64,000 nt of DNA from a virus (IMGVR_UViG_3300009509_000004:1-64000); one strand, 5' to 3'. Positions 1,292 to 17,673 are shown, counted from the stretch's first letter. The notes: a model not told the origin generated them from the sequence alone. Numbers and translations: made by a program.

Positions 1292-4200
1292 CTATGCAGA
1301 CTTCACAATTGCGGCTGATTTTTTGTACCAATGTATCTTGCCGCCGTTGAAAAAATACTGCCACTTTGCTTTGTTTCTATTGTCTTTTTGCCTATCTAAC
1401 TCAATCAGCAGCAATCTCCCTGCCTTGATCACCTCCCTGACCTTCTTGGTCCAATTTGAAGCAAAGCAGATGCAATCCACATAATTGTTCGCCGCATCTA
1501 CCATGCCAAAGAACGCCATCTGATGATCGTTCTTGTCGTATTTGAGCATGACGTTGGTCACGACGCCTGTGAACCTGGCAGACTTCATGCCAAAGAACTT
1601 TGTGTTGTTCATCCTCTGATCGGCCACCTCTGCAGCCGTTGATTTGCTCGTTGCTTGCCAGCTCCTGGCCGCTGGGTGCTTGCCTGCCACCAATTTCTCC
1701 CACGTGGTCAGCTCGCCCTTTTCCTCCACCTTCTTGCGATAGGATTCAAGATTCACAGCAAAGTGCGCCTTCAAATTCTCAAAATGCTTGTTTGGCCTCA
1801 CATGCACTATGACTGGGGTGCCCACGCCCGCGTCAACGATCTCTCGCATGTCGTCAAAGATGTCGATGTCAAACTTGATGCGATTCTGTTTCCCACCAGC
1901 ATCCTCAACGTTGACGTTTGCATACCTCCTGCCCCAAAACATCTTGGCCCTATCTGCCTCAGTCGGCAAATCGCCCGTCCAAAAGTCCCCAATCTGATTG
2001 TATTTGACCTCAACGATGACCCCAGCGATGTACACGCCCTTGTCGTGGTTTTCCTCCCAGAAATTCTCATCAGACATGGCGACTATGGGCACCTTGACGT
2101 TCTTGGACATGAAGTCCTCATATGCGTCAATCGGGTGCCGCCCAAACGCCAATGGATTGACCTGCGATGCGATCAGTTGCCTCTCTTCAGGCGCATAGTC
2201 TGGCTCGCTGGCTGACTCAGCCAACATCTCCTTGGCCTTCTCAACAGATCTCTTGCTGTTCAGTTTCTTCCAAAAGTCATCCAGGTTGTCGATGAACCAC
2301 TTGACATTTGGCAACAGTTCATCGAGTGCGCCCGCCCTTGCTAGTGCCGCCACGACGCCCCTGTGAACCTTGCGCCTCTCAACCTTCTCAAAGAAGTCAA
2401 AGATGTCATCAAACGGCTGCTTTGCCATGATCTCTGCTGCTGCATTCTCGCCCACACCTTTGATGTCAACCAGGCTGCCTCGGATCGCCTTGTGCTTGGG
2501 GTCAATGGCAAATTCCTTCTTGCTCACCGACACATCTGGGGGCAACAACTCAATGTCGTGCTTCTTTGCATCCTTGGCAAACTGCTGGATGCGCAAACGT
2601 GTTGGCTCATTCTTGAGCAGCCCCCAATAGAATTCAATTGGGTAGTATGTCTTGAGCCACATCCCCCAGTATGCAATGATGCCATATGCAGTGGCGTGGC
2701 TCTTGTTGAAGCCATACGACCCAAAGAATGTGATGGCGTCCATCAGCTTGCCAGCTGTCTTTTCGTCCATCCCGATGGTTTTCTTGGCACCCTCAATGAA
2801 ATTCTTGCGCTCTTTGCCAATGGTCTCATCGCCCCATTTCTTGGCAATCTTCTTGCGCAGCGAGTCTGCTGTTGCAGGGGCAAAGCCTGCGATCTCTGTG
2901 AAGATGCGCAGCACGTGTTCCTGATACACGATGATGCCGAGTGTGTCAGCTGTGATCTCGCTGACCTTGGGGTGCAAATAGCCCTCCTTGCGCTTCTTGG
3001 GATCTTTCTTGCGTGCGACATATTGGGTGGCCAGACCGCTGCGCGCCGTCCCTGGCCTGTTCAACGCCGTCATTGCCGCGATGTCTTCAAAATGCTCAAA
3101 CTTGACGCCTGAGCAAATCTTGTCAGCCCCTGGCGAGTCATACTGGAAGATGCCCACATAGTCGTGGTCTGTGAAGCCCTGCAGCACCTTCTTGTCGTTG
3201 AGATCAACGTGCTCAAGGTCAACCTCGACCCCGTGCCGATCCTTGATCGCCCTCACGGCATCCTTCAGCACTGTGAGTGTGCGCAGACCCAGAACATCCA
3301 ACTTGAGCAACCCGTGAGCTTGGACACCGTACATGTCAACAGCCGACACGACAACATCCCTGCCGTCGTGTTTGCGCACCTCCAATGGCGTGATCTGTTC
3401 CAGCGGGGTTGGGCTTGTGACAACGCCTGCCGCGTGAATGCCCAGGTTCTTTGCCATCCCTTCCAGCTTTGCGGCATACTTCAGCACGTCAGGATATTTC
3501 TTGTCAAACTCCCGACACACCTTGAATTCCTTGAAACTGTCTGTGATGGTCATGCTGGCCCGCTCGTCACCACTTGATCTCTCGATGATGCTGTTGGTGA
3601 CCGCGTTGACTTCTGCATATGGAACTTTGAGCACCCGTGAAACGTCCTTGAGGCACTGCTTCCCTGACAGCTTACCAACGGTGGCGATCTGACACACTTT
3701 GTCCTCGCCATACTTCTCACGCAAATGCTCGATGATTTCCTGTCGCCTCACGTCTTCAAAATCCATATCAATGTCAGGCATGTCGATGCGGCTTGGGCTG
3801 ATGAACCTCTCGAACAACAACCCGTGCTCAATCGGATCCACTGACGTGATGCCAAGTAGGTATGACACAATGGAGCCTGCCGCTGAACCTCGACCTGGGC
3901 CGCACATGATGTCTTGTTTGCGCACCCAATTGTACAAGTCTCGCACCAACAAGAAGTAGCCCACAAACTTCTGGTGCTGTATCGCCTTCAACTCGCTCTT
4001 GAGCCTTGATTTGTAGATGTCCAGCGCCTCGCCCTCGCTGATTCCCTGCCTCTTTGCATGCACCTTGGCCCGATCTGGGATGTTGCGCCAGCTCCACCCG
4101 TGGATGCACAACGCTCTGATGTATGCAAAGTCATCTGTGTATTCTTCAGGGATCTCGATTGGCGGCATCAAGCACGCAAACCTGTCAATCTCAATGATCT

Positions 4201-5146
4201 TGTTGTCAACCCGCTCCGTGAATGCCAGCGTGTTGTTCAGCGCCTCCTTGATCAGCCCCTTCCCCATGTAGCTGTGATATTTCATGAAATCATGAAACAT
4301 TTCTGCTCTGCTTTTGAGCCACAACTGGCCGTCGCCAAACTTGAACCGATCTGGGTTGCTCAGGTGGTCGTTGGTGCCGATGCACAACAGCGCCTCGTGC
4401 GCTTCCCAATCGCTGTGTTCCACATAGTGCGCATCTTGCGTAGCCAGGAGCCTGACCTTGTTTTCCCATCTGCTCATCAGCTCGATGGCAAACTTGTTGG
4501 TCATCGCCTGCTCTTTGAGATTGTGAGGCATCACCTCCAACCAAAGATCCTCCCCAAACGCCTCATACAGCTTGTCTGCTTCTGCCATCGCCCGCTTGCG
4601 CTTGCCGATGGTGATATGGTCCATGACGATGCTGGACAGGCACCCTGTGGCGACCATCAACCCCTCTTTGTGCTTGATCAGCTCGTCAACATCGATGCGT
4701 GGCTTGTAGTAGAATCCCTCAAGCCACCCCTTTGACGACAGCTTGAATAGGTTTTCAAGCCCCGCCTTGTTCTTTGCCCAGACTGTGATGTGGTATCTAT
4801 CCCTGATGCCATGTCTGTCTTCATACTCCCTGATGGCATCCTTCCACTCTGTGCGCTTCAGCCCCTTGGTGATGTCTGCCTTCTCTTCAGGAGTCAGCCC
4901 CTTGCGATGCATGTCGTTTGCGACATAGAACTCAATGCCGTACACAGGCTTGATCTCGTGCGTTTGGCACTCCAACAGCTGTTGATAATATGCACGCATG
5001 GTGCCGTGCTCTGTGAGCGCAATTGCTGGGTGGCCCATCTCTTTGGCCTTCTTCACATACGCATCGATCTTGCCACAACCGTCCAGCTGGCTCATGTCGC
5101 TGTGAACGTGCAAGTGCACCATATCTTGTTTGGGTTTCTTGGCCAT
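1292..5146 (-). CDS. dnaE: DNA polymerase III alpha subunit (family C)
   Basis: PHP domain HLHVHS..LDG, GPGRGSAAGS, catalytic PDIDMDF, GIHAAGVV, LLKLDVLGL, YGFNKSHATAY; no intein seen. Confidence 0.97.
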   Translation of the reverse strand: MAKKPKQDMVHLHVHSDMSQLDGCGKIDAYVKKAKEMGHPAIALTEHGTMRAYYQQLLECQTHEIKPVYGIEFYVANDMHRKGLTPEEKADITKGLKRTEWKDAIREYEDRHGIRDRYHITVWAKNKAGLENLFKLSSKGWLEGFYYKPRIDVDELIKHKEGLMVATGCLSSIVMDHITIGKRKRAMAEADKLYEAFGEDLWLEVMPHNLKEQAMTNKFAIELMSRWENKVRLLATQDAHYVEHSDWEAHEALLCIGTNDHLSNPDRFKFGDGQLWLKSRAEMFHDFMKYHSYMGKGLIKEALNNTLAFTERVDNKIIEIDRFACLMPPIEIPEEYTDDFAYIRALCIHGWSWRNIPDRAKVHAKRQGISEGEALDIYKSRLKSELKAIQHQKFVGYFLLVRDLYNWVRKQDIMCGPGRGSAAGSIVSYLLGITSVDPIEHGLLFERFISPSRIDMPDIDMDFEDVRRQEIIEHLREKYGEDKVCQIATVGKLSGKQCLKDVSRVLKVPYAEVNAVTNSIIERSSGDERASMTITDSFKEFKVCREFDKKYPDVLKYAAKLEGMAKNLGIHAAGVVTSPTPLEQITPLEVRKHDGRDVVVSAVDMYGVQAHGLLKLDVLGLRTLTVLKDAVRAIKDRHGVEVDLEHVDLNDKKVLQGFTDHDYVGIFQYDSPGADKICSGVKFEHFEDIAAMTALNRPGTARSGLATQYVARKKDPKKRKEGYLHPKVSEITADTLGIIVYQEHVLRIFTEIAGFAPATADSLRKKIAKKWGDETIGKERKNFIEGAKKTIGMDEKTAGKLMDAITFFGSYGFNKSHATAYGIIAYWGMWLKTYYPIEFYWGLLKNEPTRLRIQQFAKDAKKHDIELLPPDVSVSKKEFAIDPKHKAIRGSLVDIKGVGENAAAEIMAKQPFDDIFDFFEKVERRKVHRGVVAALARAGALDELLPNVKWFIDNLDDFWKKLNSKRSVEKAKEMLAESASEPDYAPEERQLIASQVNPLAFGRHPIDAYEDFMSKNVKVPIVAMSDENFWEENHDKGVYIAGVIVEVKYNQIGDFWTGDLPTEADRAKMFWGRRYANVNVEDAGGKQNRIKFDIDIFDDMREIVDAGVGTPVIVHVRPNKHFENLKAHFAVNLESYRKKVEEKGELTTWEKLVAGKHPAARSWQATSKSTAAEVADQRMNNTKFFGMKSARFTGVVTNVMLKYDKNDHQMAFFGMVDAANNYVDCICFASNWTKKVREVIKAGRLLLIELDRQKDNRNKAKWQYFFNGGKIHWYKKSAAIVKSA

Positions 5147-5147
5147 G

Positions 5148-5627
5148 CTATCGCCTTCTGAACTTGTTTGTTCGCCTCAGCTGGTATTCACAGATGTTCT
5201 TCAACTCCTTGGGGAAGTCCTCACTGATGATCCAGCTCAAGTATCCTCTGTCAACCTCGGCAATATGCGACAGGTTGTTGCCGTCGTGCTTGCCAAAGTG
5301 CAACAATGCATCCCTTCCATCTGCGCTCACAACATATCTGCCGCCCTTGTGTCTGCCTTCCTTCTTGGCTTTGGCCTTGGCAGCCATGTTGTCAGCCCAG
5401 TTGCCTTTTGAATGCCTTGGGATCCAGCCGTGCCCCTCGCAAGCAACACAGATGTCTCCTGACCAATCGCCCGTTCCTTGACACCGCGCACACTGCTTTG
5501 CTGGCATGTTGAACGGGTTTTGCTTTGCCTCCCTGATCGGTTCAAGCGACCAACTGCCCTCCCTTTCCGGCAGCCCATCGACATCGTGGCCTTGAAGCCA
5601 CTTCCTCATTTCCTCAATGCTTGGCAC
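5148..5627 (-). CDS. Small protein with a DnaJ-like Zn finger and a C-terminal 'FGKH' (exonuclease X C-terminal-like) domain
   Basis: CxxCxGxG..CxxCxGxG motif; LHFGKHDG..LSHI..DRGYLSWI. Confidence 0.6.
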   Translation of the reverse strand: MPSIEEMRKWLQGHDVDGLPEREGSWSLEPIREAKQNPFNMPAKQCARCQGTGDWSGDICVACEGHGWIPRHSKGNWADNMAAKAKAKKEGRHKGGRYVVSADGRDALLHFGKHDGNNLSHIAEVDRGYLSWIISEDFPKELKNICEYQLRRTNKFRRR

Positions 5628-6225
5628 CGTTCAACTCTGGCACAACCAGATTGACAACACTCCTGACGCCATCCTCGATCTCGACATCACCCGTGTTGAT
5701 CTGGCGCTTGGTCAGCGTGACTGCCTGAAACATCTTCTTGTACCACGTGTCCAAAAGCGTGTACTGCTTCTTGTTTGGGCACCACCTCCCATAACACCTG
5801 CCCTGTGCTATGTGATATGGCGCTTTCAACCAGATGTACACGATTGGCCCGTTGCCTCGTTGGATGAGAGACAGCCAGAACTCCATCAATCTGCGTGCGA
5901 CGTACCGTTGCCCATACCATCCGTCATCATGGTTGTGTAACACACCATAGGCGACAGCAGACGGCACAGCACGATCCAAGATGGCGCTCACCTGGAATGT
6001 GGCCAAGAAGTCTGCTGCGTACAGATCGTCAACGTGCGTGTTGACCGGCACCTTCAACTCATCCCTGAGCATCTGGAACCGTTCTTGGCCCTTGTATCCC
6101 CAATGCAACTCCGTGTCGCCGTCCCTGAATGGCCTGACAATGGGCAATCCACCTAGCTGGTCTGATAATGCCTTTGCGTAGGTGGATTTGCCCACGCCAT
6201 TTGAGCCTTCAAGGATGATGATCAT
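5614..6225 (-). CDS. Deoxynucleoside monophosphate kinase (thymidylate kinase-like)
   Basis: IIILEGSNGVGKST P-loop; ILDR..PSAVAYG motif. Confidence 0.85.
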   Translation of the reverse strand: MIIILEGSNGVGKSTYAKALSDQLGGLPIVRPFRDGDTELHWGYKGQERFQMLRDELKVPVNTHVDDLYAADFLATFQVSAILDRAVPSAVAYGVLHNHDDGWYGQRYVARRLMEFWLSLIQRGNGPIVYIWLKAPYHIAQGRCYGRWCPNKKQYTLLDTWYKKMFQAVTLTKRQINTGDVEIEDGVRSVVNLVVPELNGAKH

Positions 6226-7526
6226 GTCGTTGCCAAAGTCCTGTGCGTCACCTCCAGGATCTGCAATGCAGCCTGGACCTCTGCCTCTGACACATTCAGA
6301 GGTGGCGTGAATCGGATCGGCCCATACTGCCGGTGCGTGGCCAAGGACAAGCCCAAGCGCCTCGCCTCGTGGATGAACCTGAACCCATCATAACCAAACT
6401 GCTCAAAATCTGGTGTGAACGCATTGAGCATCCCTGACCCGTCATGCTCTTTGACCCAGCTCATCTCAGCGAATGACGCCCTGATCATCGCCCCCTTCTT
6501 GCGCACCAACTCGATGTTCTTGTCCAACCACCTGTACATCTCAACTGCCATGTGACACACAAACGGTGAGCCTCCAAATGTGTTGAAGTGGACGCCTGGC
6601 GTGAACGCCTCTGCGACCTTGACCGATGCGAGCATCACGCTCATTGGGAATCCCATTGCGATGCCCTTGGCCAATGTCATGATGTCAGGCTTCACCTGGA
6701 TGTCTGGGTGTTGCCACGTTGCGAAGTATCCTGCGCGCCCCGACCCAGCCTGCACATCGTCATAGATGAGCAGCACGCCGTGTTCATCCCTGATGCGTTT
6801 CAACTCCTGCCAGAATGCCGGTTTGTATGTTTGGACAACGTTGTTGCCAAGCACTGGAGCAAGGATGATTGCTGCCACTTGATCCCAATTTGGTTCGCTT
6901 GGTTTGTGCTCGACTCCATCTGTGACAGTCTGTTTGAAATAGACCTTGCTGAAGTCTGCTTCCCAATCCAACACGCCAAACCCCTGCGACCCTGGGCCAA
7001 ATCCATGGCGGTGATATGGACTGACTCTGAAGTCTCCAGCCGCCATGCTGTTGGCCGTCCTGCCGTGGAAGTTGCCCTTGATGGTCAAGACCACGTGCCG
7101 CTTTGCCGTGTTCAGGATCTCCCCCTGCTCCTTGTCCCACCAATACTTGCGTGCCAGCTTGATTGCCGACTCGTTTGCCTCAGTGCCGCTGTTGGCAAAG
7201 AATGCGTGATCCATGCCTGTGCGGTCGCAAATGATCTCTGCAGCATCCCATCGCCGTTGGTTGGGATAGATGTCTGGCAACTGATGCGGGTGGCCACTCC
7301 CAAAGAACTTCATGACAGCCTGGATGACCTCTGGCGTGTTGTAGCCCAGCGAGCACACACCTTCATCTCCCCAATAGTCAAGAAGCGCTTTGTCATCGTG
7401 CTCTACATCAATGATGGTTGAGCCTTGACACGGCCCAATTGTCATGGGCATCCGCACAACATTGTTCATCAACCGCCTGTTGTACAACTCTGTGTTGACG
7501 GTTTTGTCTTCATTCGGGTTGGTCAT
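6222..7526 (-). CDS. Class III PLP-dependent aminotransferase (ArgD/GabT-like fold)
   Basis: FFANSGTEANESAIKLAR, FHGRT, YDDVQAGSGRAG, PDIMTLAKG (PLP lysine), HFNTFGGSP. Confidence 0.92.
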   Translation of the reverse strand: MTNPNEDKTVNTELYNRRLMNNVVRMPMTIGPCQGSTIIDVEHDDKALLDYWGDEGVCSLGYNTPEVIQAVMKFFGSGHPHQLPDIYPNQRRWDAAEIICDRTGMDHAFFANSGTEANESAIKLARKYWWDKEQGEILNTAKRHVVLTIKGNFHGRTANSMAAGDFRVSPYHRHGFGPGSQGFGVLDWEADFSKVYFKQTVTDGVEHKPSEPNWDQVAAIILAPVLGNNVVQTYKPAFWQELKRIRDEHGVLLIYDDVQAGSGRAGYFATWQHPDIQVKPDIMTLAKGIAMGFPMSVMLASVKVAEAFTPGVHFNTFGGSPFVCHMAVEMYRWLDKNIELVRKKGAMIRASFAEMSWVKEHDGSGMLNAFTPDFEQFGYDGFRFIHEARRLGLSLATHRQYGPIRFTPPLNVSEAEVQAALQILEVTHRTLATT

Positions 7527-8485
7527 CGCTTCAGCTCTCCTGTGTAGGGATCTCGACCCCAGAAGCGCCGATATTGCTCAGCGCGTTTGATCATTTCATC
7601 CTTGCGTGGCACATCCACGTGCGGCAACTGCAGCGGCAACATCCCACGTGCCGACTCGTCAACGTGATGGAAATTGAGGTGCAGCGGGCAAGGTGGAAGT
7701 GCGTCATCACCTGTCAAGCGCCGCCTGCACTCTTCCATGTAGATACACCCGCCAAACTTGTTTCCTTTCAGGCATGGCGGTGAGACCAGCTCTCTGAAGA
7801 TCGGGTGGATCTTCTCTGCTGCCTCGTTGATCATCCCCTCGATGATTGGCCCCCAAATGCCCAGCTGAAGAATCCAGCACCCACGCTTCCCAACAATATG
7901 GGCAAGGCTGCCGATGTTCAACCGCCAGCTGATTCTGTGTTGAGCGCCCAACGGTATGAGCTCACGCGCATCCTCCATTGGCACCCCTGCCGCCACCAGC
8001 TCGTTGTATGCCGACTCGATCACCTTCATCGTGTCGTGAAACAAGCTCTCTTTGCCCAGCTCGACAACCGTGGGTGGCAACCGATACTGCTTGTTGGTTG
8101 CATAATGGCCCATGTCCTGGATGCGCATCGACTGCGACCACCAACTGCTGTCTGCCAAATCAGGGATCTTGTCCACAACGATGTCCGACCCCAACCGCTC
8201 TGGGCTGGGTGTGACTCCGATGCGGTGACGCACAGCCTGCTCTCTCCAGCTGACTGAAACGTTCTCCATCATGTAGACCAGATCCACGTGTTCGCCAACT
8301 GGAATACGTTGAGCAATGACCGCCCTGAACAGCTCTTCAACCTCTTCATGCGGCACCTGCTCTTTGATTTCCTCTGGTGTGCGCAGCTTGTCCTCAGTCT
8401 TGGACGCCTCCCAGACGCTGTACACAGTCTCCAGCGGATCTTTCGTCCACGTCAACAATGTTACTTTTGGTGTTGGGTTGCTCAT
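7523..8485 (-). CDS. thyX: ThyX-like flavin-dependent thymidylate synthase homologue
   Basis: EH..(V)S..EQAVRHR...SQSMR, GVPMEDARELIP, NIGSLAHIVGKRGC. ATG at 8485 follows GGAGGA. Confidence 0.8.
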   Translation of the reverse strand: MSNPTPKVTLLTWTKDPLETVYSVWEASKTEDKLRTPEEIKEQVPHEEVEELFRAVIAQRIPVGEHVDLVYMMENVSVSWREQAVRHRIGVTPSPERLGSDIVVDKIPDLADSSWWSQSMRIQDMGHYATNKQYRLPPTVVELGKESLFHDTMKVIESAYNELVAAGVPMEDARELIPLGAQHRISWRLNIGSLAHIVGKRGCWILQLGIWGPIIEGMINEAAEKIHPIFRELVSPPCLKGNKFGGCIYMEECRRRLTGDDALPPCPLHLNFHHVDESARGMLPLQLPHVDVPRKDEMIKRAEQYRRFWGRDPYTGELKR

Positions 8486-8487
8486 CT

Positions 8488-9255
8488 TCAATCCTCCTTG
8501 AATGTCCTGATCACCTTGACAGGCACCTTGTCTTTCACCTCTTCAATTTCAAATCCGCCCCGCTCTGCGCCCTTCTTGAGCAGGAACATTGAAGACATGC
8601 GGTGCCAGATGACAACCGCAACAGTGCCAAAATCATACTTCTGCTTGTAGTGCAGGGCCACTGCCCTGAAATAGTCATACCAGTCATCAACGTCCATGCT
8701 GATTGATTCTGCGTATGACTCCCTGTTCTTCTTGAATCTTGCCAAACCAAACACCGCGCTGTCTGTCAGCGTCACCCACTCCCTGGACGCCCTGAAAATT
8801 GAGCTGACAGCATCTGAGTAGCGTGTTTCAGTCAGGTATCGGTTGAACGTGAGTTGATTGAAATCTGCATGCACCCAATCCCAAGACTTCTTTGCTTGCT
8901 TGGCGATGTATGCATATGAGTCAGCCTGCTTTGCCCTCACCATGGGCAGCGATCTCGTGATCGACTCGATGCAATCCTTGTTGACATCGAGCGCCAAGTG
9001 GCTCATCGGTTTGCACGCATCCTGAATCATGGAAGCGTGCCAACCTGACCCGCCAAACAACTCAATGACTGACTCGACCTTGCCCACCTTCTCAACAACC
9101 TTCTTGAATGCGGCAAGCTCTGCGTGAATCTCTTGACGCCTGATTGCATAATGGGCGTGCGGTGCATCCTTGCCGATCATCGCCCTTTCATCATCACTGG
9201 ATGAGTCACAGACGTACATCTGCTTGCTGCCAACTCTGACCTCTGTGATATTCAT
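8488..9255 (-). CDS. Class I SAM-dependent methyltransferase-fold protein
   Basis: VIELFGGSG (motif I), ALDVN (motif II), WDWVHADFN. ATG at 9255 forms an ATGA overlap with the upstream stop. Confidence 0.7.
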   Translation of the reverse strand: MNITEVRVGSKQMYVCDSSSDDERAMIGKDAPHAHYAIRRQEIHAELAAFKKVVEKVGKVESVIELFGGSGWHASMIQDACKPMSHLALDVNKDCIESITRSLPMVRAKQADSYAYIAKQAKKSWDWVHADFNQLTFNRYLTETRYSDAVSSIFRASREWVTLTDSAVFGLARFKKNRESYAESISMDVDDWYDYFRAVALHYKQKYDFGTVAVVIWHRMSSMFLLKKGAERGGFEIEEVKDKVPVKVIRTFKED

Positions 9256-10163
9256 GATGGCCTCCCAACCGCCTTGACGATTGATGGCCAATCTTCAACA
9301 CGTGTAATCAGCTTGTTGTCCTCGATGCCCTTGTTGTAATCCCAAGCCAATAGGAGCACAGGCACGCCAATGGCAGCGACCTCCTTTGCGTGCTTCTCTC
9401 GATCCTCGATGAAGTATGCTGGCCTGGCAGGGAAAATGAATTCATAGATGGCCTCAGCCTTGTCCTTGTTGAACAAGATCAAGTCATAGGTCATCCCGTG
9501 TTTCTGGAGCCATTCAACCGTGTCTCCATACACCCGCTTGTACTGCCAATATGGCCGTGCGCTGATGAGCACAATCTTCCATCCCGCCTCGCTGATTGCC
9601 TTCAGCCCTTCAGCCGCCCCCTCGATGGGTGGAAGATCCAAAAAGCCACCATCCCTGTAGAAGTCCTCTTTCAGCGACTCAAGCAGCTGCACCGTCCTGT
9701 CGTTCATCGGTGCGCCGCCACGCGCCTCATTGAGCTTGCTTTGCCACCCGCTGAGATCTGCGATGATGTTGTCCACATCGACGATGATCAGCTTTGTGTC
9801 TCGCTCAAGCTCAAGCCTCTCGCCCTTTGCCCTGTCGTCAACGACCTTGGACTTGCGCAAAAATGCCTCGTACAGCTCTGTGGCGGTCACGCCATACAGC
9901 TGTGCGATGCTGATGAGATATTTGAGCACGTCAGCCGCCCCGTCTGCCACGTTGACCTTCTCAACGGGTGGGCACCTCAAAATGTGTGCCTTGTATCTGG
10001 CCACGACCTGCGACAGCTCGCCTGCCTCTTCATACAAGCCCAAAGCAAGATCCTTTGCTGTCTGAGCCTTGGTGATTGCGTTCATCCCCTTGGGGTCCAT
10101 ATTGAACGCAACCTGTTGGTCGTGTTGTTTCTGCCACATCTCATTCCATTGGTCTGTCGTCAT
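9252..10163 (-). CDS. MazG-like NTP pyrophosphatase fused to a HAD 5'(3')-deoxyribonucleotidase
   Basis: N-terminal LYEEAGEL...DGAADVLKY; C-terminal IIVDVDNIIAD, LISAR, DK, FIEDR (HAD motifs I-IV). Confidence 0.8.
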   Translation of the reverse strand: MTTDQWNEMWQKQHDQQVAFNMDPKGMNAITKAQTAKDLALGLYEEAGELSQVVARYKAHILRCPPVEKVNVADGAADVLKYLISIAQLYGVTATELYEAFLRKSKVVDDRAKGERLELERDTKLIIVDVDNIIADLSGWQSKLNEARGGAPMNDRTVQLLESLKEDFYRDGGFLDLPPIEGAAEGLKAISEAGWKIVLISARPYWQYKRVYGDTVEWLQKHGMTYDLILFNKDKAEAIYEFIFPARPAYFIEDREKHAKEVAAIGVPVLLLAWDYNKGIEDNKLITRVEDWPSIVKAVGRPS

Positions 10164-11119
10164 ATGAACCACCTCTGAGCCAGGTCTGCTGCTTCTTCAA
10201 GTGTGACATCCGTTGTCGCTCTTGGATCCCATTTTGCAAACCTCCCAAGCAACTCAACGTTCTCTGGGAGTTTTGGTTGAGAATCCAAGGGCAACAGGTG
10301 CCCCTTCAATCCTTCACGTATGCTCTCTATGTACCAACCATCCCTGAAGATGAAATTGAGGTCAGAATACAGCGCCTGCTTGTTCAAATCTCCGTTCACC
10401 TCGACAGCGTATCCACCGCCCTCTGGCGATATTCTGTGGATGCAATCCTCTGGTGTGTATGGCGTGTAGACATAATCCCACTTGGCGTATTTGTCACGCT
10501 TTGGGTTGATCAAGGCCACATTCAATTTCATGGCCATCCCATCGGGCACATAGAACTTGACCACGCGCTGAATCACCCACAAAGGGACAGTCAGCACCAA
10601 GTAGTCATATGGCATCGTGGTGCCGCCCGCAAGGACAACATGGTCATCCTCGACACGCTCCAGCCCAGCCCTGATTATGTTTGCGTGCGCCGCCAGCTTG
10701 TTGATCATGTCTGGAAAATGGCACCTCAGCGCCCGTCTTGGCTTGATGCTCGCTGGGTCGTTCATTGCCTGGTTGCTGTGTTTGCCTGGTTCCATCCGCC
10801 TCGTTTTGCGGTAGTGATCGGCCTGGATGCGTGTTGCATCATCCTTGTTGAACTCCTGGAAGCACTTTGGGTATGGCAGCACCTCGCCTCTGAGCAAAAT
10901 GCCGCCTTGGACAGTGTAGTGGCTGTACATCACGCCGATCTTCCTGAACAACCATTCCATCATATCTGTGCTGTGGATGTACTTCAGTCCTCCAGCCAAG
11001 AATTCACCGCCGATGGTCCTGGGCTCCAGCACCTTTGTTTCAACGTTCTTGTGCTTGCTGAACACATATGCGCAGATCAACCCTGACACACCGCCGCCTG
11101 CGATGATCGCTTGTTTCAT
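10160..11119 (-). CDS. FAD-dependent oxidoreductase (UDP-galactopyranose mutase/amine oxidase-like fold)
   Basis: IIAGGGVSGLICA Rossmann motif, IGG, YDYLVLTVP, LLGRFAKW. ATG at 11119 follows GGAG. Confidence 0.85.
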   Translation of the reverse strand: MKQAIIAGGGVSGLICAYVFSKHKNVETKVLEPRTIGGEFLAGGLKYIHSTDMMEWLFRKIGVMYSHYTVQGGILLRGEVLPYPKCFQEFNKDDATRIQADHYRKTRRMEPGKHSNQAMNDPASIKPRRALRCHFPDMINKLAAHANIIRAGLERVEDDHVVLAGGTTMPYDYLVLTVPLWVIQRVVKFYVPDGMAMKLNVALINPKRDKYAKWDYVYTPYTPEDCIHRISPEGGGYAVEVNGDLNKQALYSDLNFIFRDGWYIESIREGLKGHLLPLDSQPKLPENVELLGRFAKWDPRATTDVTLEEAADLAQRWFI

Positions 11120-11136
11120 GCTATCTCCGATGTGGG

Positions 11137-11205
11137 AAAAAGTGGCGGCACCCCAGGAGAACGGACAGCCCGCTGACGCAGACAATCACGAATTGGGGTG
11201 CCGCC
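11137..11205 (-). terminator. Hairpin with 12-bp perfect stem, 38-nt loop and U-tract; candidate terminator/antisense RNA
   Basis: ggcggcacccca (11144-11155) / tggggtgccgcc (11194-11205), followed on the - strand by acttttt. Confidence 0.65.
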
Positions 11206-11242
11206 TGCCTCCGACAGCCTTGAACGACGGTTGGCAAGACCA

Positions 11243-12103
11243 TCAGCATGCCGGTGGCAAATCAATCTTACCTCGTTTCACTAGGTGCGCGATAGTCTGA
11301 GCAGCCAACGCAACCCCTTCTTTGTCCAGATTCATCATAACAGACCTGAACTTGCCGTCATCAATCGGTTGCGGCTTGATCTTGTCCATCGTCACCTTTC
11401 CAACTCCTATGTAGCTTGTGTGCTCCACAGGGATCTCGATGTCAAATGTCATTGAGCGCGTCTTGAACTTGATGACAGCCACAGGTGCATCCCTGCCTTT
11501 CGTCATCTTGCAGTACACACTCACATAGTTGCTGGTCCTCATCCTGTCAACGATGTAGAACCTGCCTGGCTTGACCGCCTCGCCTGGGGATGTGAACCTG
11601 TACACCTCCAGGTTCTCAACCATAACCGTCTTGAAGTGGTCAAACATCCTCTTCAGAATCTCTCTGCGCTCGATGGCCCGCTGTGTGATTGCCTTCCTGG
11701 CAAGCTCCTGGGCCTCCTTGCTGGGCCTGAGTGCCTTGCGGCCATCGTTCTCAGGTGCCTTCTTGGGCTTCTTGGGCCGTGTCGGATCTCTCGTGATCCT
11801 TCCTTCAACAACGCCATAGCGCTTGACTTGTTTCGCGCACAACCTCTCAAAGTGTCTCACACCCTTGATTGGGATACCCAACACGCCCTCTGGATGCGTT
11901 GGGTGCGGCTGCGCCTCGATAAAGTCATCAGCCTTCAGCTTGGTCTCTGCCAGGTATGCTTGGAATGCAACGCAATTGTCCCTGTACTTGCAGTGGTTGC
12001 GTTGAAACTCTGTATCAGCCTCTGGGTTGCCGTCACACGCCCCGTCGCCTGCCTCATATTCACCTGTGCAAAATGGCACATCGCGTTTTGGTTCTTCAGC
12101 CAT
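11243..12103 (-). CDS. Hypothetical protein with an N-terminal Cys cluster
   Basis: C..C..CxxxxxC N-terminus; overlaps the end of the sigma factor gene. Confidence 0.7.
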   Translation of the reverse strand: MAEEPKRDVPFCTGEYEAGDGACDGNPEADTEFQRNHCKYRDNCVAFQAYLAETKLKADDFIEAQPHPTHPEGVLGIPIKGVRHFERLCAKQVKRYGVVEGRITRDPTRPKKPKKAPENDGRKALRPSKEAQELARKAITQRAIERREILKRMFDHFKTVMVENLEVYRFTSPGEAVKPGRFYIVDRMRTSNYVSVYCKMTKGRDAPVAVIKFKTRSMTFDIEIPVEHTSYIGVGKVTMDKIKPQPIDDGKFRSVMMNLDKEGVALAAQTIAHLVKRGKIDLPPAC

Positions 12104-13238
12104 GCTTCAGCTCCTTCACCAACGTCTTGTACCAGCTGACTGGCACATCCTCGCGCATGCCATCCTCGCCAAAGACCTCTCCTGTCAGCGGGTTGAAACG
12201 TCCTTCAATAACCATTGTGACATATTCTTTGCCTCGCTTGAGGGTCACCTCTGACCCCCACGCATAGCGTTTGATCATCCTCACCCACTTGGGTTTTCCA
12301 TCTTGCCCGACCTCTCCAGCTGTCTGGAAGTGGTCTTGCTCTTGCATGTATCCGGCCAATGGGACGCTGTCCAAGCATCGCTTTTTGATGATTCTTTTCG
12401 CCCACTCGATGTCATGGTGCTCCCCACGTGTCATGTGTATCATTGGCCATCCCCTACCTATTACAACATCACCAAACAGATCGCTGAAATCATCGTCATA
12501 TTTGGCAATCTCTGTGAACAACTTTTTGACCTTGTGCATGGCCCAGTCCACAGCGTTCTTGTCGATTTTGATGTACTTGGCGATCTGCCTATTGGTCACC
12601 TGGAATCCTGGTTCAAGCGCCAACTCGCCCCCTTCATCCCTGTAGACAAACTCAACACCCTCTGTGTAGAGCATGTCCAACATTTCTGCCGGTGGATGCA
12701 CCTTGCACCTGAACACAAGCCGCTCCGTGCCTGTGAGCTTGTTGTACATCTTCATCGTGAACTTTCCGACATCAGACCTGAGCTGATGGTGCGTGATCTC
12801 CTGCTCAGGGCTGACCCACTTTTCGTCTGGTGGCTCGTATGGGCACACCTCGTCATCCGTTGGAGCAAGCATGGCGTCCAATGAAATGGGGAAGCGTGGC
12901 CGCTTCACCCAATTGCCATTCTCATCCTTGGCCATGACGTGTGGAACCTTGGATTGCGTCAGCGACTCGTACACCATGCAATGGTACGTGTTGATCAGGA
13001 CGCGCCCAACGTAGCTCTCCAGCTTCCCTTTGTTCTTGTTGAAATCAAACTTGGCCAGCGCTGACAAAAGCGCCAACCGCCCTTCCTGGATGGCATCGTC
13101 AAGCTCGATGCCTGGAAGCATGTGGGCGATCCTGCGTGAGCGCTGCTTGATGTATGGAAACACCCTGCGCTCGATCTCAGGGTACACCTCGTTGATGATG
13201 CCGTCGCACTTGAATCCAGCTGGGAATGAAACTGTCAT
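12096..13238 (-). CDS. Phage RNA polymerase sigma factor (sigma70 family) with a C-terminal extension
   Basis: Region 2 'DDAIQEGRLALLSALAKFD...LESYV'; region 4 HTH 'TNRQIAKYIKIDKNAVDWAMHKVKK'. Confidence 0.8.
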   Translation of the reverse strand: MTVSFPAGFKCDGIINEVYPEIERRVFPYIKQRSRRIAHMLPGIELDDAIQEGRLALLSALAKFDFNKNKGKLESYVGRVLINTYHCMVYESLTQSKVPHVMAKDENGNWVKRPRFPISLDAMLAPTDDEVCPYEPPDEKWVSPEQEITHHQLRSDVGKFTMKMYNKLTGTERLVFRCKVHPPAEMLDMLYTEGVEFVYRDEGGELALEPGFQVTNRQIAKYIKIDKNAVDWAMHKVKKLFTEIAKYDDDFSDLFGDVVIGRGWPMIHMTRGEHHDIEWAKRIIKKRCLDSVPLAGYMQEQDHFQTAGEVGQDGKPKWVRMIKRYAWGSEVTLKRGKEYVTMVIEGRFNPLTGEVFGEDGMREDVPVSWYKTLVKELKHG

Positions 13239-15265
13239 GCCGCCCTCCTTTTGGCGTCCAGGAGTTTGGCACGCATCAGCTTGTACACCTCAACTGCTAG
13301 CTTGGTCATGTCGTTGATGACCGCGCCACTCGCTCCGTGTTCTTTGTTGTAGAAGTCCTTGATGTGGTCGGTCATCGCCCCGATGCCCACGACCTCGATG
13401 CCCGCCTTGGTGATCTCGGTGATGACTTCCTCAAGGTGCTTGCAGAGCACCCCGCGATCAACCCCGCCGCCTGCCGGCATCCCATCGGACAATATGAACA
13501 TGATCTTGCGCGCCTCTGGCCTCTTTGCGAGCCTGAGTGCGCAAGCCATGATGGCCTCGCCGTCTGTGTTGTTGCCATCGCCCGTGATGGCGTTCATGCG
13601 GGTGCGCACCCGCTTGTACTTCTCTCCAAAATCCTTGAAGATGACATATTCAATCGGCTCACCACGCTGCGTCCCTGGCATGATGCTGACCGATGCGTTC
13701 CAATCGTTGTGGAATCCGATGACCTCAAAGGGCACGTTCAACGCGTCAAAAGTCTCGCTGAGTGCAATGGCCATGAGCTTGGCGTAATATGCCTTGTACT
13801 TTGGGTCATACCCTGGACCCATCGAGCCACTGAGATCGATGACGACGCTGATGGCCGTGTCCAGTGTCTCGCCTTCCTTCTCAACCTGAAACACGTTGAC
13901 GTTGCCGGTGGGAACCTGGGCCAGACGCGCCTTGTCGAGTTTGCCCTTGCGGTGGCCGCTTTCCATGCGGGATGCCGCCTTGGCTCTGATGACGTTGAGC
14001 AGCTTGCCTTTGAGACCTCTGATCTGCCCAGCGACAACTTCCTTGGCCTTGTTGTATTCTGCTTGGGCGTGTTCTGGGTTGCGGATGTGCGGCTTGACCC
14101 AGCGATCTCGCTTCAGGACGTTGGGGTTGGGGATGTAGCGCCGATGCGATCTGGCCTCGCCCTTGGCGATGTCCAGAACCTGATCCTTGACTTGCTTGAT
14201 CAGATCGTCTGTCTCTGCGTCCGTGCTTGCCTCGTCACCAGCCTGACACGCCTGGTCAAGCTCTTCATCGGTCAGCTCGCTTGAATCCTCGCCTTTGGGT
14301 GCGCCCGTTTTGGGTGCCTCGCTGCCGTCGCTGCCTGCCTCGCTGTCTCCCTCGTCATCCCCATCCTCGCCCTTGCTGGTGGACTGTTCCGTGCCTTCCT
14401 GCTCATCCTCGTCACTCTCGCCACTCTGGCCACCCTCGCCCTCTTGATCCTCTCCCTCGCTGTCGCTGCCGCTGTCACTCTGCTCCTGCTCGCCCTCGCT
14501 GCTGTCGCCCTCTTGCTCCTGGGCATCGCCCTCTTGCTTGTCTTGGCCGTCTTGCTTCTCTTGCTCTTGCTTCTGCTTTTCTTCTTGGCGCTGCTGGCGC
14601 TCTTGCTCCAGATCGTCAACCTTGTCGTTGATCTTGTCGATGACGCGCAACGCCAACTCGTGGCTGTCTTTGGCCCAGCTAGTCTTGGTGCTTTCCTCGA
14701 CCTCTGCTTGAACCGCGTCCAAGTATGGCTGGAACTTCTTGGGGAGCCACTCAACGCTGTAGCCTCTCGCCTTCATGATGATGGCGCTGCCGAGTGTGTG
14801 CCAGAAATTGACCCGCTTGCCTTTGCTGGTCTCGCCGTCAATCCCGTGGCGCTTCTTGAAGAGATCAACGCTGTTGACGTTTGCCTCGTGAAGATTCTCT
14901 GACACGCCCTTGTATTTGGCGCTGTACTTGTGCTCGATCCTGATGTCTTCAAAAACGTTGAGCAGCATGCGCTCTTTGGTGCTCTTGCAGTCGCGCATGA
15001 TTTTGAGCGGGGTGCGCTGGCCTGCCTCGGTGTGCTCCCTTTCCTCTGCGACGTGTGCGACCTCGTGATCGAGCAATCCGTGGAGAACTTTCTGGTTGGC
15101 CCCGTCAAGATAATCTGCGTTGAATGGATACTTGATGACCTCGCCGTCTGTGCTGCAGTCGTATCCCGATGGAACAACCTGAACGTTCCAGTTTCTCGAC
15201 ATAGCGCGTGCGATCTTCTGGAATGGTCCAAGGAGTGAATTGATTGCTTGCGTGGCTTTTTTCAT
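13235..15265 (-). CDS. cobT: CobT-like vWA protein (N-terminal HExxH domain, acidic linker, vWA domain)
   Basis: HEVAH...NVFEDIRIE; Q/E/D/S-rich linker; MIDAS DLSGS, NTDGEA, LSDGMP. Confidence 0.85.
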   Translation of the reverse strand: MKKATQAINSLLGPFQKIARAMSRNWNVQVVPSGYDCSTDGEVIKYPFNADYLDGANQKVLHGLLDHEVAHVAEEREHTEAGQRTPLKIMRDCKSTKERMLLNVFEDIRIEHKYSAKYKGVSENLHEANVNSVDLFKKRHGIDGETSKGKRVNFWHTLGSAIIMKARGYSVEWLPKKFQPYLDAVQAEVEESTKTSWAKDSHELALRVIDKINDKVDDLEQERQQRQEEKQKQEQEKQDGQDKQEGDAQEQEGDSSEGEQEQSDSGSDSEGEDQEGEGGQSGESDEDEQEGTEQSTSKGEDGDDEGDSEAGSDGSEAPKTGAPKGEDSSELTDEELDQACQAGDEASTDAETDDLIKQVKDQVLDIAKGEARSHRRYIPNPNVLKRDRWVKPHIRNPEHAQAEYNKAKEVVAGQIRGLKGKLLNVIRAKAASRMESGHRKGKLDKARLAQVPTGNVNVFQVEKEGETLDTAISVVIDLSGSMGPGYDPKYKAYYAKLMAIALSETFDALNVPFEVIGFHNDWNASVSIMPGTQRGEPIEYVIFKDFGEKYKRVRTRMNAITGDGNNTDGEAIMACALRLAKRPEARKIMFILSDGMPAGGGVDRGVLCKHLEEVITEITKAGIEVVGIGAMTDHIKDFYNKEHGASGAVINDMTKLAVEVYKLMRAKLLDAKRRAA

Positions 15266-15295
15266 GTGTCCGTTCTCCGTTTTTGCCTGATTCTA

Positions 15296-15356
15296 AGTCT
15301 AATGCCTCCTGGTCTTGAAGTCAAGGAAAAAGTTGCCTTGGAGGCAACTTTTTTTG
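15296..15356 (-). promoter_or_regulatory. Terminator-like inverted repeat plus sigma70 promoter for cobT
   Basis: - strand TTGACT (15324-15319), 17-bp spacer, TAGACT (15301-15296); inverted repeat aaaaagttgcct-tgg-aggcaacttttt immediately upstream. Confidence 0.8.
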
Positions 15357-15359
15357 GCT

Positions 15360-16550
15360 TCACACCTCCCCACCAAAATACCGCTGGATGATGCCGTCAA
15401 CAAACTTGGCATCGTCAGCGCCCAACTTGTTGATGACTGCTACGTTTGCGCCCTTGCGCACGTCGTTGTAGCGCTTGGCTTTCCTGGCCCAAGACAGAAG
15501 CCTGCGAGTGCCAAATGTGCAATAGCACTCTTCACGGTTGAGTGCGTCTCTGACCTTGGCCGCGATCTCGACCATCTTGCGCGCCCAATCGATCTTGACG
15601 CCAGTCTTTTGAACCAGGATCTGCGTCTCTGTCTCCTTGTCTGGGTAGTCAAACTTGATGATGGTACCAAAACGGTCAAGCGTTGCCTCGTTGAGAACGT
15701 TGGCGCCAGCGTACAGCCCCGTGTCGTCACCGCGCCCGTTGGTGTTGTCCGTCCCAAAGATGCGGGTGCGCGGGTGCTTCGCAACGACCTCGCCGCCATT
15801 CTCGATGAGGACAAGATCGTCACCCTCAAGACAACCTTGGAGGCGCATCAGAACGCCTGCCGGTGCCATGGTGATCTCGTCAAGGATGATGAAATATCCA
15901 TCCCGCCATGCGCGGGTGAACGCGCCATCCTTCCAGCGTGTGACCTGCTTGCCGGTTTCCTCGTCAACAACGATCTCCATCTGGCCGATGAAGTCTTCAA
16001 TGCTGATCTTCTGGCTGAACTGGAACCGAATACAAGGTGTGTTGACGATTGCTGCGAGCTGTTTGACGATGGTGGTCTTGCCGCCGCCTGTGGGCCCGAA
16101 AATGAAGATGTTGTCGTTGTCCTCGATGCCGACTGCGATGTGCTCCATGTGCTCCATTTCGCGCTTGCCTGGGAGCCACTTGGCGTCGTGCTTCGGCACC
16201 TCTGCCTTCTGAAGCGCCGTGAGGTCTGCGTCCTTGACGAGTTTGAGCCTGGCTACGCCAACCTTGAAATCCTCTGCCGACTCGGTGACGACCTCTGCCG
16301 CCTTGGGCTCTGGCCCTTTCGATGGCTCGATTGGCTTGGCCTTGACCGCCCGCTTCTGCCCTTTGCTCGCCATCTTGCGCGCCGCCTCGCTGATTGTTGG
16401 TTCGCCAGGATACTTGGCCTGATAATCTGCGAGAGACATCGAGTGCTCGACCTTGAGGTGGACTTCCAAACGATGGAACCAACACTCACAGATCCTGCAC
16501 TGGATTTTCTCTCTGCCCTTCTTGTCGAGTTTGGTGTGCTTGCTTCCCAT
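15360..16550 (-). CDS. cobS: CobS/MoxR-like AAA+ ATPase with an N-terminal Ros/MucR-like zinc finger
   Basis: GPTGGGKT, IILDE, TDNTNGRGD, NEATLDRF; N-terminal CRICECWFHRLEVHLKVEHSMSLADYQAKYP. Confidence 0.88.
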   Translation of the reverse strand: MGSKHTKLDKKGREKIQCRICECWFHRLEVHLKVEHSMSLADYQAKYPGEPTISEAARKMASKGQKRAVKAKPIEPSKGPEPKAAEVVTESAEDFKVGVARLKLVKDADLTALQKAEVPKHDAKWLPGKREMEHMEHIAVGIEDNDNIFIFGPTGGGKTTIVKQLAAIVNTPCIRFQFSQKISIEDFIGQMEIVVDEETGKQVTRWKDGAFTRAWRDGYFIILDEITMAPAGVLMRLQGCLEGDDLVLIENGGEVVAKHPRTRIFGTDNTNGRGDDTGLYAGANVLNEATLDRFGTIIKFDYPDKETETQILVQKTGVKIDWARKMVEIAAKVRDALNREECYCTFGTRRLLSWARKAKRYNDVRKGANVAVINKLGADDAKFVDGIIQRYFGGEV

Positions 16551-16600
16551 GTCCGTTCTCCTTTTTGAGTTGGATTTGCCCTTTCCAACTTTCAACTTAA

Positions 16601-16674: not shown

Positions 16675-17673
16675 TCATTGATAGATTTTCTCCAACTTTT
16701 TTCTGCTCGCACCAACGATTGCACTCAATCTGCCACGCCTGTCACCAGTATATTTCACCGCGTTGTCGTATGCCTCCCATGCCTGCTTGCGCGTTGATGC
16801 CCCTGGGTCTGTGCCCATCGGCAACCGCGCAATCGACACGTGGTCAAAGCGACACAACAACTGCTCTGCGACCTTGTATGGCGCTTCTGCCTCTTCAGGG
16901 TCAAGCATGACGGTGATGGCTGCGTCGCTGGGCTTCATGATGAGCATCGCCAGTTGTTCTGGATGCAGCACCTTGCCCATGAGTGCGAGTGCGGGAATGC
17001 CGTGCTGCCACAACTTGATTGCGTCCAATGGCCCCTCGACAATGGCCACATCGCCCTCGATTTTGTGATGCTTCCACCCAAGCAAAAGTCTGGCGTGGTC
17101 GGCACCTTTTGGATTCAGGTATTTGGGCTGCTGTTGGCCTGTCGTGTCGCGTGCCGTGAACGATCTTCCATTGGGGCATTCCACTGGGATGACTATGCGC
17201 CCGCCATATCGCCCTGATCGACACCAACCGACTCCCCATTCACGCGCTGTGGCTTTCTTGATGCGCCTTTCCTTCAGGTACACAGGAAAACTCCAATGGC
17301 CATCCTTGTACACAGGGATGTATTCTGCCGGCAACGGGAAGTCAACCGCATCGTCTGGTGCGTCGCCCTCCCTGAGCGCCAGCACCTTCTCAACCAACGT
17401 CTGCGGTGTCTCCTTGCGTCTGAACTCGACCTCGTTGCGCATGATGTAGCGCTGCGCCTCGCCCCTGCTGATCCCCTCCACTTGGGCAATCAGCCCGATC
17501 ATGAAGCGCCCTGCTTCTTCACACTTGAAACAGATGTAGTGGCCCTTTTCGCCATCCACATAAAAGTGGCCATCTTTGGAACACCAAGGACACACCGCGA
17601 TGATCTGGCCTGTGCTGCCCAAGCGCACTCTGTCCAGATTGTCTCGGCACCAGCCCTCGATGTCAAATTTCAT
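16675..17673 (-). CDS. DNA primase (Zn finger + TOPRIM)
   Basis: CPWC...CFKC, RIVIP, PKYLNP, AIVEGPLDAI, MLDPE. Confidence 0.88.
   Translation of the reverse strand: MKFDIEGWCRDNLDRVRLGSTGQIIAVCPWCSKDGHFYVDGEKGHYICFKCEEAGRFMIGLIAQVEGISRGEAQRYIMRNEVEFRRKETPQTLVEKVLALREGDAPDDAVDFPLPAEYIPVYKDGHWSFPVYLKERRIKKATAREWGVGWCRSGRYGGRIVIPVECPNGRSFTARDTTGQQQPKYLNPKGADHARLLLGWKHHKIEGDVAIVEGPLDAIKLWQHGIPALALMGKVLHPEQLAMLIMKPSDAAITVMLDPEEAEAPYKVAEQLLCRFDHVSIARLPMGTDPGASTRKQAWEAYDNAVKYTGDRRGRLSAIVGASRKKLEKIYQ

Follow-up and report, generated by a model that had tools for sequence, protein, structure and literature searches.

We analysed the window IMGVR_UViG_3300009509_000004:1-64000, the opening 64,000 nucleotides of a 106,758-bp virus record that has direct terminal repeats and is rated complete, and focused on a run of six minus-strand genes at 5614–11119 encoding a flavoprotein, a MazG-HAD fusion, a methyltransferase (MTase), a ThyX homologue, an aminotransferase and a kinase. 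From the sequence we propose, with a probability of about 0.5, that this operon specifies a nucleotide-level, pre-replicative pathway to an amine-bearing, C5-substituted deoxyuridine (dU) that would replace thymidine while dTTP and dTMP are destroyed. The family and fold assignments of the proteins, their retained catalytic motifs, the coupling of the genes, their co-occurrence deep into the phage clade and the lack of matches to post-replicative enzyme models are direct observations.

The minus strand holds almost all genes of the virus, and the six-gene run is located in the replication module. The order of the module is a DEAD/ResIII helicase, DnaB, a DnaC-like loader, a DNA N6/N4 methylase and a primase, then CobS/CobT-like AAA+ and VWA proteins, a sigma factor and a 286-aa zinc-finger protein, and finally the six-gene run, a 159-aa zinc-ribbon protein and DnaE. 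An earlier reading of the window made from the sequence alone (the sequence-only reading) had described six genes, mostly joined by ATGA overlaps, with one small gene before DnaE, and all of this is borne out. The six open reading frames (ORFs) are present, and start and stop codons overlap as ATGA at 10163/10160 (flavoprotein/MazG-HAD), 9255/9252 (MazG-HAD/MTase), 7526/7523 (ThyX/aminotransferase) and 6225/6222 (aminotransferase/kinase), while a single gene of 159 codons (5148–5627) lies between the kinase and DnaE (1292–5146). The fifth junction, from MTase to ThyX, is a TTGA overlap if ThyX starts at the TTG at 8491; more likely, ThyX starts at the ATG at 8485, which is behind a GGAGGA Shine-Dalgarno sequence and leaves a 2-nt gap to the MTase stop. 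A scan for promoters and terminators found nothing decisive within the operon.

Relatives were collected by alignment-driven searches of viral and metagenome contigs, which yielded more than 80 loci. Five core genes (flavoprotein, MazG-HAD, ThyX, aminotransferase and kinase) lie close together just ahead of DnaE in about 25 further independent lineages, the order of the core genes is shuffled among these lineages, and DnaE is downstream of the operon in every relative that could be evaluated. A distant clade with the five-gene core has 25–32% identity in the flavoprotein and 45% in DnaE. Because the set recurs in so many independent contig lineages, we conclude that the arrangement did not come about by chance. 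The operon is translationally coupled and is conserved across a deep phage clade; co-occurrence in related phages holds for the five core genes and fails for the MTase. Searches of 185,579 prokaryote species genomes gave no relative, so there is no prophage copy and no clue to the host.

The ThyX homologue (7523–8491, minus strand, 320–322 aa) resembles a flavin-dependent pyrimidine C5 transferase with a rebuilt catalytic loop. It matches PF02511 at 6.5e-18, scoring 65.6 bits where the cut-off is 24.8 (and 63.3 bits when the whole genome was scanned), but it fails at the equivalog level, with 44.8 bits for TIGR02170 against a cut-off of 87.9, and phmmer against solved ThyX structures gave no match at E<0.01. 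The dUMP-binding arginines (R78, R80, R90, R147 and R174 in the Thermotoga maritima enzyme) are kept: R88, R90, R123, R176 and R203 do not vary across 12 homologues, and R176 and R203 align to R147 and R174. The RHR motif and S121 are invariant too. An insert of about 25 aa separates RHR from SQSMR, and the compact RHR-x7-S signature is thus missing. The protein also has a Cys-rich C-terminal extension in which C240, C249, C268 and H271 are conserved. The genome has no second Thy1 match, nor do five complete relatives have more than one, and ThyA was found neither in the complete genome nor in these five relatives.

The MazG-HAD gene (9252–10163, minus strand) encodes a 303-aa fusion of an N-terminal MazG-type NTP pyrophosphatase (PF03819) and a C-terminal HAD 5′(3′)-deoxyribonucleotidase of the NT5C type (PF06941). 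The HAD half matches PF06941 at 3.8e-11 (43.6 bits, cut-off 24.8) and keeps motifs I–IV, with D129, D131, K235, E253 and D254 invariant or nearly so. The MazG half matches PF03819 weakly (0.0025, 18.5 bits, cut-off 22) and has conserved EExxE and ExxD motifs; across 15 homologues of the fusion, the EE, ExxD, DxD, K and ED motifs are all invariant. The best matches in the PDB are the human cytosolic and mitochondrial deoxyribonucleotidases cdN and mdN (1e-5) and small MazG structures (8e-5). The PBS1 dTMP phosphatase, which depletes thymidine nucleotides, has been reported to be structurally similar to the human mitochondrial deoxyribonucleotidase (PMC12697855).

The kinase (5614–6225, minus strand) is a 203-aa P-loop protein of the thymidylate kinase (TMPK)/deoxynucleoside kinase (dNK) superfamily (phrog_761, 1.2e-9) with the motifs GxNGxGKS and LDRxxxSA. 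Its likeness to TMPK and dNK is at the profile level only: a profile built from 17 homologues matches SPbeta YorR at 4e-10, TMPK at 1e-7 and dNK at 5e-5, and the Pfam model Thymidylate_kin matches 11 of the 17, with the window kinase by itself under the cut-off. The sequence-only reading had grouped a pyrophosphatase-nucleotidase and a dedicated kinase with a thymidylate-synthase-type enzyme, and the assignments agree with that grouping. A canonical deoxynucleoside kinase is also encoded elsewhere in the genome, at 75368–75877 on the minus strand (PF01712, 1e-41). Because this kinase and the NT5C domain are both present, the phage can, judging by its gene content, interconvert deoxynucleosides and dNMPs.

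Two further genes outside the window bear on the fate of uracil. The complete genome encodes a dCMP deaminase at 96626–96961 and, near it, a family-4 uracil-DNA glycosylase (UDG) at 97324–97923 on the minus strand, in which the catalytic motifs GEGPG and HPSYL are both present. The UDG is kept in 5 of 5 complete relatives, and an enzyme of this kind is known to accompany T-modified phage genomes (PMC13697223). These genes matter for one alternative, in which dTTP and dTMP are destroyed, dUMP is phosphorylated and dU itself replaces dT. The MazG-NT5C fusion, the kinase and the dCMP deaminase do resemble the PBS1-type enzyme set (PMC12697855), but the conserved ThyX homologue would use up dUMP, and the phage and its relatives encode a UDG with both catalytic motifs. 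Because the UDG is conserved, we reject uracil-DNA and leave it next to no weight.

The aminotransferase (6222–7526, minus strand) is a 434-aa class III (omega) enzyme that derives from ArgD and belongs to a viral clade that we call G1 (PF00202, 4.6e-64). It keeps the pyridoxal phosphate lysine K287 together with D256 and Q259, yet it is below all NCBIfam ArgD cut-offs (220 bits for TIGR00707 against 410), and its substrate pocket departs from that of ArgD in three places, with EPIQGE changed to APVLGN, LGH to LGY and HGSTFGG to HFNTFGG. In an unrooted aminotransferase tree, G1, a second viral clade G2 and cellular ArgD are three well-supported groups, of which G1 is long-branched. G1 and G2 have derived pocket replacements in common that are absent from cellular ArgD, and because of these common residues a single viral origin of the two clades appears favoured. 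A search of viral contigs with the single aminotransferase sequence gave no match, whereas alignment-based searches did. Matches in the phage collection proved to be bacterial-type ArgD/AstC from contaminated records and were discarded.

The flavoprotein (10160–11119, minus strand, 319 aa) was assigned by the fold of its AlphaFold2 (AF2) model (mean predicted local distance difference test score, pLDDT, 91.6), which has a GxGxxG dinucleotide fold and places it in the superfamily of amine oxidases, protoporphyrinogen oxidase (PPO) and UDP-galactopyranose mutase (UGM). It has no significant Pfam match, PF01593 (Amino_oxidase) does not match it at E<=0.01, and alignment at the sequence level is restricted to the dinucleotide-binding motif. 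The top fold match is UGM (Z 27.2, rmsd 2.8 Å, 318 residues), although identity to UGM is 14–16%, the length is 319 aa against 367–510, and the two have no sequence-level match; PPO (Z 23.6) and monoamine and L-amino-acid oxidases (Z about 20.6) come next. No MnmC-type flavoenzyme is indicated, as 0 DAO-family proteins are among the 50 best fold matches listed. The earlier call of an FAD oxidoreductase therefore holds as far as a flavoprotein fold goes, and does not hold for any likeness to alcohol oxidases or to MnmC-type DAO enzymes. Metagenomes yield more than 186 homologues, many from contigs of about 100 kb, and a protein atlas places the family in virus-only clusters; BFVD gave no close structural relative that bears an informative name. 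Over 47 family members the most conserved positions are basic or aromatic (K105, R107, Y216, Y218, R229, H274, R293 and R300), a pattern that would fit an anionic substrate such as a nucleotide.

The sequence-only reading had also noted that the enzymes of post-replicative thymidine hypermodification were not recognisable in the window. This extends to the complete 106.7-kb genome, where HMUDK_hel (PF18723) and ADDT (PF18724) have no match at E<=0.1, with phage-side controls for these models being uninformative. The first is the model for the 5-hydroxymethyl-dU (5-hmdU) DNA kinase, and the second we take, from its name, to be the amino acid:DNA transferase model. PF18725 was also considered and turned out to be an unrelated family.

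The MTase (8488–9255, minus strand) is a 255-aa protein with a class I S-adenosylmethionine (SAM) methyltransferase fold, also assigned by fold in that it has no significant Pfam match. Its AF2 model (pLDDT 89.5) is closest to RlmO, Trm5a, TYW2, TrmM, Trm1 and RsmC at Z 14–16, so that its fold neighbours are mostly nucleobase-modifying RNA methyltransferases; it has the motifs FGGSG and HADFN, with D90 and D112 conserved. Only 10 homologues were found among 5.8 billion proteins. The gene occurs in about six lineages, at four different junctions, exclusively alongside aminotransferase clade G1, and the sister contigs L021 and L041 differ in its presence. The earlier placing of the MTase on a par with the other five genes is therefore changed: it is outside the conserved core, a mobile accessory, and because it is optional a methylation step would apply to a subset of the phages. 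Other accessories vary as well. A short-chain dehydrogenase/reductase (SDR) of the epimerase/dehydratase type stands in place of the MTase in L003 and L022, which are a single lineage; L014 and L049 carry a second aminotransferase; L073 has an unrelated Methyltransf_11 enzyme; and L072 has an MT-A70 gene between the kinase and DnaE. Such swapping between close relatives is what a diversifying DNA modification would be expected to show.

We infer all of the chemical steps of the proposed pathway from these assignments. The phage dCMP deaminase would supply dUMP, to which the divergent ThyX, with its dUMP-binding arginines kept and its catalytic loop rebuilt, would add a carbon substituent at C5 that is not finished to a methyl group. 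The flavoprotein and the omega-aminotransferase would then turn the alcohol or carbonyl carbon of this substituent into a primary amine, and in the window phage the accessory MTase would methylate the product. The TMPK-like kinase would make the diphosphate, and host nucleoside diphosphate (NDP) kinase the triphosphate for the phage DnaE. Meanwhile the MazG-NT5C fusion would take dTTP to dTMP and on to thymidine, and perhaps degrade dUTP too, and the family-4 UDG would clear stray uracil from DNA. The leading candidate for the product is 5-aminomethyl-dU, N-methylated in the window phage. The sequence-only reading had a specific route to such a product, which taken step by step would run through hydroxymethyl, formyl, aminomethyl and N-methyl, and this route may apply.

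A longer, sugar-derived amino chain is a serious variant of the product, because of the UGM-like fold and the link of the ThyX to SP-15 and Pbunavirus. Among cultured phages, the ThyX closest to that of the window is LIS04_124 from Listeria phage LIS04 (24.5% identity over 91%, E 2e-18). The record of this phage places it in Thornevirus SP15; LIS04 has no other Thy1 gene, and LIS04_124 has clade-specific motifs in common with the window ThyX. In SP-15, about half of thymine is replaced by dihydroxypentyluracil, which is generated before DNA synthesis at the triphosphate level, and the divergent ThyX of SP-15 (gp130) has been proposed as the modifying enzyme (PMC5977210). The 305-aa ThyX of Pbunavirus is a more distant relative (24% identity) that has part of the C-terminal Cys/FWG tail in common, and Pbunavirus DNA contains hypermodified thymidines whose biosynthesis genes are not known (PMC12191111).

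One alternative is a route in which the C5 substituent is a chain derived from a sugar or aldehyde instead of a one-carbon unit from folate, as in the dihydroxypentyl-dU of SP-15 or the sugar-alcohol thymidines of Pbunavirus, with the UGM-like flavoprotein handling an aldose and the aminotransferase aminating the chain carbonyl to give an amino-polyol dU nucleotide. UGM, the best fold match of the flavoprotein, forms a flavin N5-sugar iminium; the cultured phages nearest in ThyX are LIS04 and Pbunavirus; ribose label enters the SP-15 side chain, going by the title of Walker & Mandel 1978 as cited in PMC5977210; the T adducts of Pbunavirus look sugar-derived (PMC12191111); and the MTase is replaced by an SDR epimerase/dehydratase in one lineage. 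But identity to UGM is low, PPO and amine oxidases score nearly equally, LIS04 and Pbunavirus are without homologues of the flavoprotein and the aminotransferase, and ThyX has no known flavin chemistry of this kind. We regard this route as quite unlikely.

From the UGM-like fold and the SDR one could also suppose that an NDP-amino-sugar is the product of the aminotransferase and the flavoprotein (with the SDR in some relatives) and is transferred afterwards onto DNA or some other target, and Rhizobium phage RL38J1 does use a phage-encoded UGM in DNA glycosylation (PMC13326640). The earlier note had named an amino-sugar product as its alternative. This is weakened because ORFs of at least 90 aa in the complete genome gave no match to a glycosyltransferase family at E<=1e-4. 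In addition, sugar aminotransferases are normally of the DegT type, whereas the operon enzyme derives from ArgD, and the SDR is confined to one lineage. Thus, we consider an NDP-amino-sugar very improbable.

Several points weigh against a pathway to an amine-bearing dU. The fold of the flavoprotein is nearest to a non-redox mutase and to C-N and C-C oxidases and not to known alcohol oxidases; because it is unlike alcohol oxidases and MnmC-type DAO enzymes, a CH2OH to CHO step would be without family precedent, and an amine oxidase and an aminotransferase acting on one carbon would be redundant. In L055 and L058 the flavoprotein gene is before DnaE while ThyX, aminotransferase and MazG-HAD are not within 8 kb. 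The phage collection has no cultured-phage match to the operon DNA, to the flavoprotein or to the kinase. Over the whole genome (106,758 bp), 6-mer palindromes have a mean observed/expected ratio (O/E) of 0.51 against 1.00 for non-palindromes, and CTCGAG, CGATCG, AAGCTT, GTCGAC, ACCGGT and CGCGCG are missing where 9–40 copies are expected. GC-only sites have an O/E of 0.25 against 0.55 for A/T-containing sites, there being just 7 GC-only sites. T-containing palindromes are avoided as well (6-mer O/E 0.55, with AAGCTT, CTCGAG and GTCGAC absent), and any T modification is therefore no blanket shield against restriction. DNA with hydroxymethyluracil (hmU) is still cut by many restriction enzymes, and a small C5 group would for this reason be compatible with palindrome avoidance.

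A final point against the proposed pathway is that the full canonical gene set for dTTP supply and uracil exclusion is present, and this leads to the main alternative, ordinary thymidylate supply. Here ThyX would make dTMP, the kinase would phosphorylate dTMP, MazG would serve as a dUTPase or house-cleaning enzyme and the dCMP deaminase and UDG would keep uracil out, with the aminotransferase, flavoprotein and MTase belonging to some unrelated auxiliary metabolism. The intact dUMP-binding residues of ThyX are as such an alternative predicts, and palindrome avoidance suggests that the DNA is not broadly protected. However, a dTMP/dUMP-type 5′-nucleotidase in the same operon would reverse dTMP synthesis, both the catalytic loop of ThyX and the pocket of the aminotransferase are rebuilt, and the aminotransferase and flavoprotein stay in the operon in the roughly 25 other lineages despite the shuffling of gene order. 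Ordinary supply accounts for four genes and leaves the nucleotidase, the aminotransferase and the flavoprotein over, and we consider it unlikely.

A broader form of the proposal for an amine-bearing dU takes in the whole clade, and we offer it tentatively, as possible but with the odds somewhat against it. The clade would replace thymidine with a cationic amine-bearing dU, either 5-aminomethyl-dU (N-methylated here) or an amino-polyol dU. This base would be completed while still a nucleotide, through a C5 transferase of the ThyX family that has given up dTMP formation, a flavoenzyme of the UGM/amine-oxidase fold and an omega-transaminase. Sister phages would then differ in their bases because their tailoring genes (two aminotransferase clades, two MTase families and the SDR) can be exchanged. 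To our knowledge, these three enzyme types would be new to DNA base biosynthesis.

The proposed pathway has parts in common with several known systems. Like SPO1, SP8 and phi-e, which contain 5-hmdU, and like SP-15, the window phage would bring together, beside its polymerase gene, an enzyme of the thymidylate synthase type with dUMP as substrate, a dedicated nucleotide kinase, predicted destruction of dTTP/dTMP and a dCMP deaminase. The SPO1-type phages use ThyA-family hydroxymethylases, whereas the window phage has a ThyX-family enzyme and no ThyA, and neither an aminotransferase nor a flavoprotein of the operon type is known from the SPO1-type phages or SP-15. The dU-DNA enzymes Dcd, Dtm and Dtt of PBS1/PBS2 and DSS3_VP1 (PMC12697855) offer a parallel in the NT5C-like dTMP phosphatase and the depletion of thymidine nucleotides; the window nucleotidase, unlike theirs, is fused to MazG, and the window phage has retained a ThyX homologue along with a UDG that looks active.

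ViI, M6 and PaMx11, which hypermodify thymidine after replication with a 5-hmdU DNA kinase (5-HMUDK) and an amino acid:DNA transferase, are alike in the likely formation of an amine-bearing C5-substituted dU with a flavoenzyme involved, but the window genome has no HMUDK_hel or ADDT match. In PaMx11, 5-aminomethyl-dU is formed and then acetylated (PMC8989533); the flavoenzyme there is MnmC/DAO-like rather than UGM/PPO-like as here, and an aminotransferase is not used. The tRNA mnm5U pathway, in which MnmEG is followed by the FAD and MTase domains of MnmC, likewise has a flavin-dependent one-carbon transfer to uracil C5 and a flavoenzyme and SAM methyltransferase acting on an aminomethyl group. 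It differs in having an RNA polymer as substrate, no aminotransferase and an MnmC FAD domain of another fold family, and in that the MTase is optional here. In Pbunavirus (PB1-like phages), the order of ThyX, HAD phosphatase, exonuclease and DnaE-type polymerase is similar and T is hypermodified, but ThyX has no insert in RxR...SxR, and homologues of the aminotransferase and the flavoprotein are absent; the modification, which is partial and specific to a TG motif, suggests a post-replicative step (PMC12191111). In Pseudomonas phage Ab27 (L095), a row of ThyX, a small ORF, an HAD_PNKP phosphatase, an RNase T-type exonuclease and DNA polymerase at 5845–11711 has a layout that echoes the window cluster.

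For the conversion of an alcohol to an amine there is an analogy in the synthesis of neomycin and other aminoglycosides, where NeoQ (BtrQ) carries out FAD oxidation of a primary alcohol to the aldehyde and NeoB (BtrB), a pyridoxal phosphate aminotransferase, then gives CH2NH2. The logic of alcohol to aldehyde to amine would be the same as proposed here. NeoQ, a GMC oxidoreductase, acts on a pseudo-oligosaccharide and not on a nucleotide, and the likeness drawn here is one of function.

In the literature considered here, wherever the enzymes of a thymidine hypermodification are established, the last steps take place on polymeric DNA once replication is over, and SP-15 is the one classical nucleotide-level case, with the enzymes behind it not known. 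With its rebuilt ThyX, transaminase and flavoprotein, the operon offers a defined set of genes that can be cloned and through which a nucleotide-level route could run, and it could explain the role of the divergent phage ThyX in SP-15-like phages and Pbunavirus. If our proposal is right, the new chemistry would lie in a flavin-dependent C5 transferase with a product other than dTMP and in an aminotransferase with a nucleotide as substrate, there would be enzymatic access to amine-functionalised dNTPs, and the entire clade of phages from sediment and soil (about 25 lineages in our searches) would be flagged as carrying non-canonical DNA.

Immediately upstream of the flavoprotein gene is that for the 286-aa zinc-finger protein (11243–12103, minus strand), which has four Cys residues and a basic linker. 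C12, C23, C38 and C44 are invariant in an alignment of 19 homologues, and the gene adjoins the flavoprotein gene in 46 loci, always immediately upstream; the protein is likely regulatory or DNA-binding. The zinc-finger and flavoprotein genes are found as a pair directly before DnaE at L055:7087-8969 and L058:2684-4473. At the other end, the 159-aa zinc-ribbon protein (minus strand) has a DnaJ-type CxxC motif and an ExoX-like C-terminal motif (PF20600, 1.7e-5). It is conserved, with a position in the cluster that shifts among relatives and a greater length elsewhere (283–375 aa). We think that it is probably a replication accessory rather than a pathway enzyme, and it may be an accessory of the polymerase or clamp.

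The presumed user of the pathway product is the phage DnaE-type replicative polymerase (minus strand, 1284 aa), which is 33–35% identical to phage DnaE-like Pol III alpha. The DnaE of many relatives is 1545–1623 aa long, with an insertion of about 0.9 kb near residue 810–823 that looks like an intein (for example, L004:15507-20378, L005:14827-19587 and L010:14937-19574); the window DnaE is without such an insertion. Further along the replication module, the CobT-like VWA and CobS/MoxR-like AAA+ ATPase pair (13235–16595, minus strand) is beside the sigma factor gene and is kept across the clade, and the N6/N4 DNA methyltransferase at 17670–18569 (minus strand; PF01555, 8e-28) has a counterpart in only some relatives, L072 having its MT-A70 gene instead. 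A minus-strand ORF also encodes a protein whose Acb2/Tad1 hairpin domain (8e-11) makes it a candidate sponge for cyclic-nucleotide defence signals.

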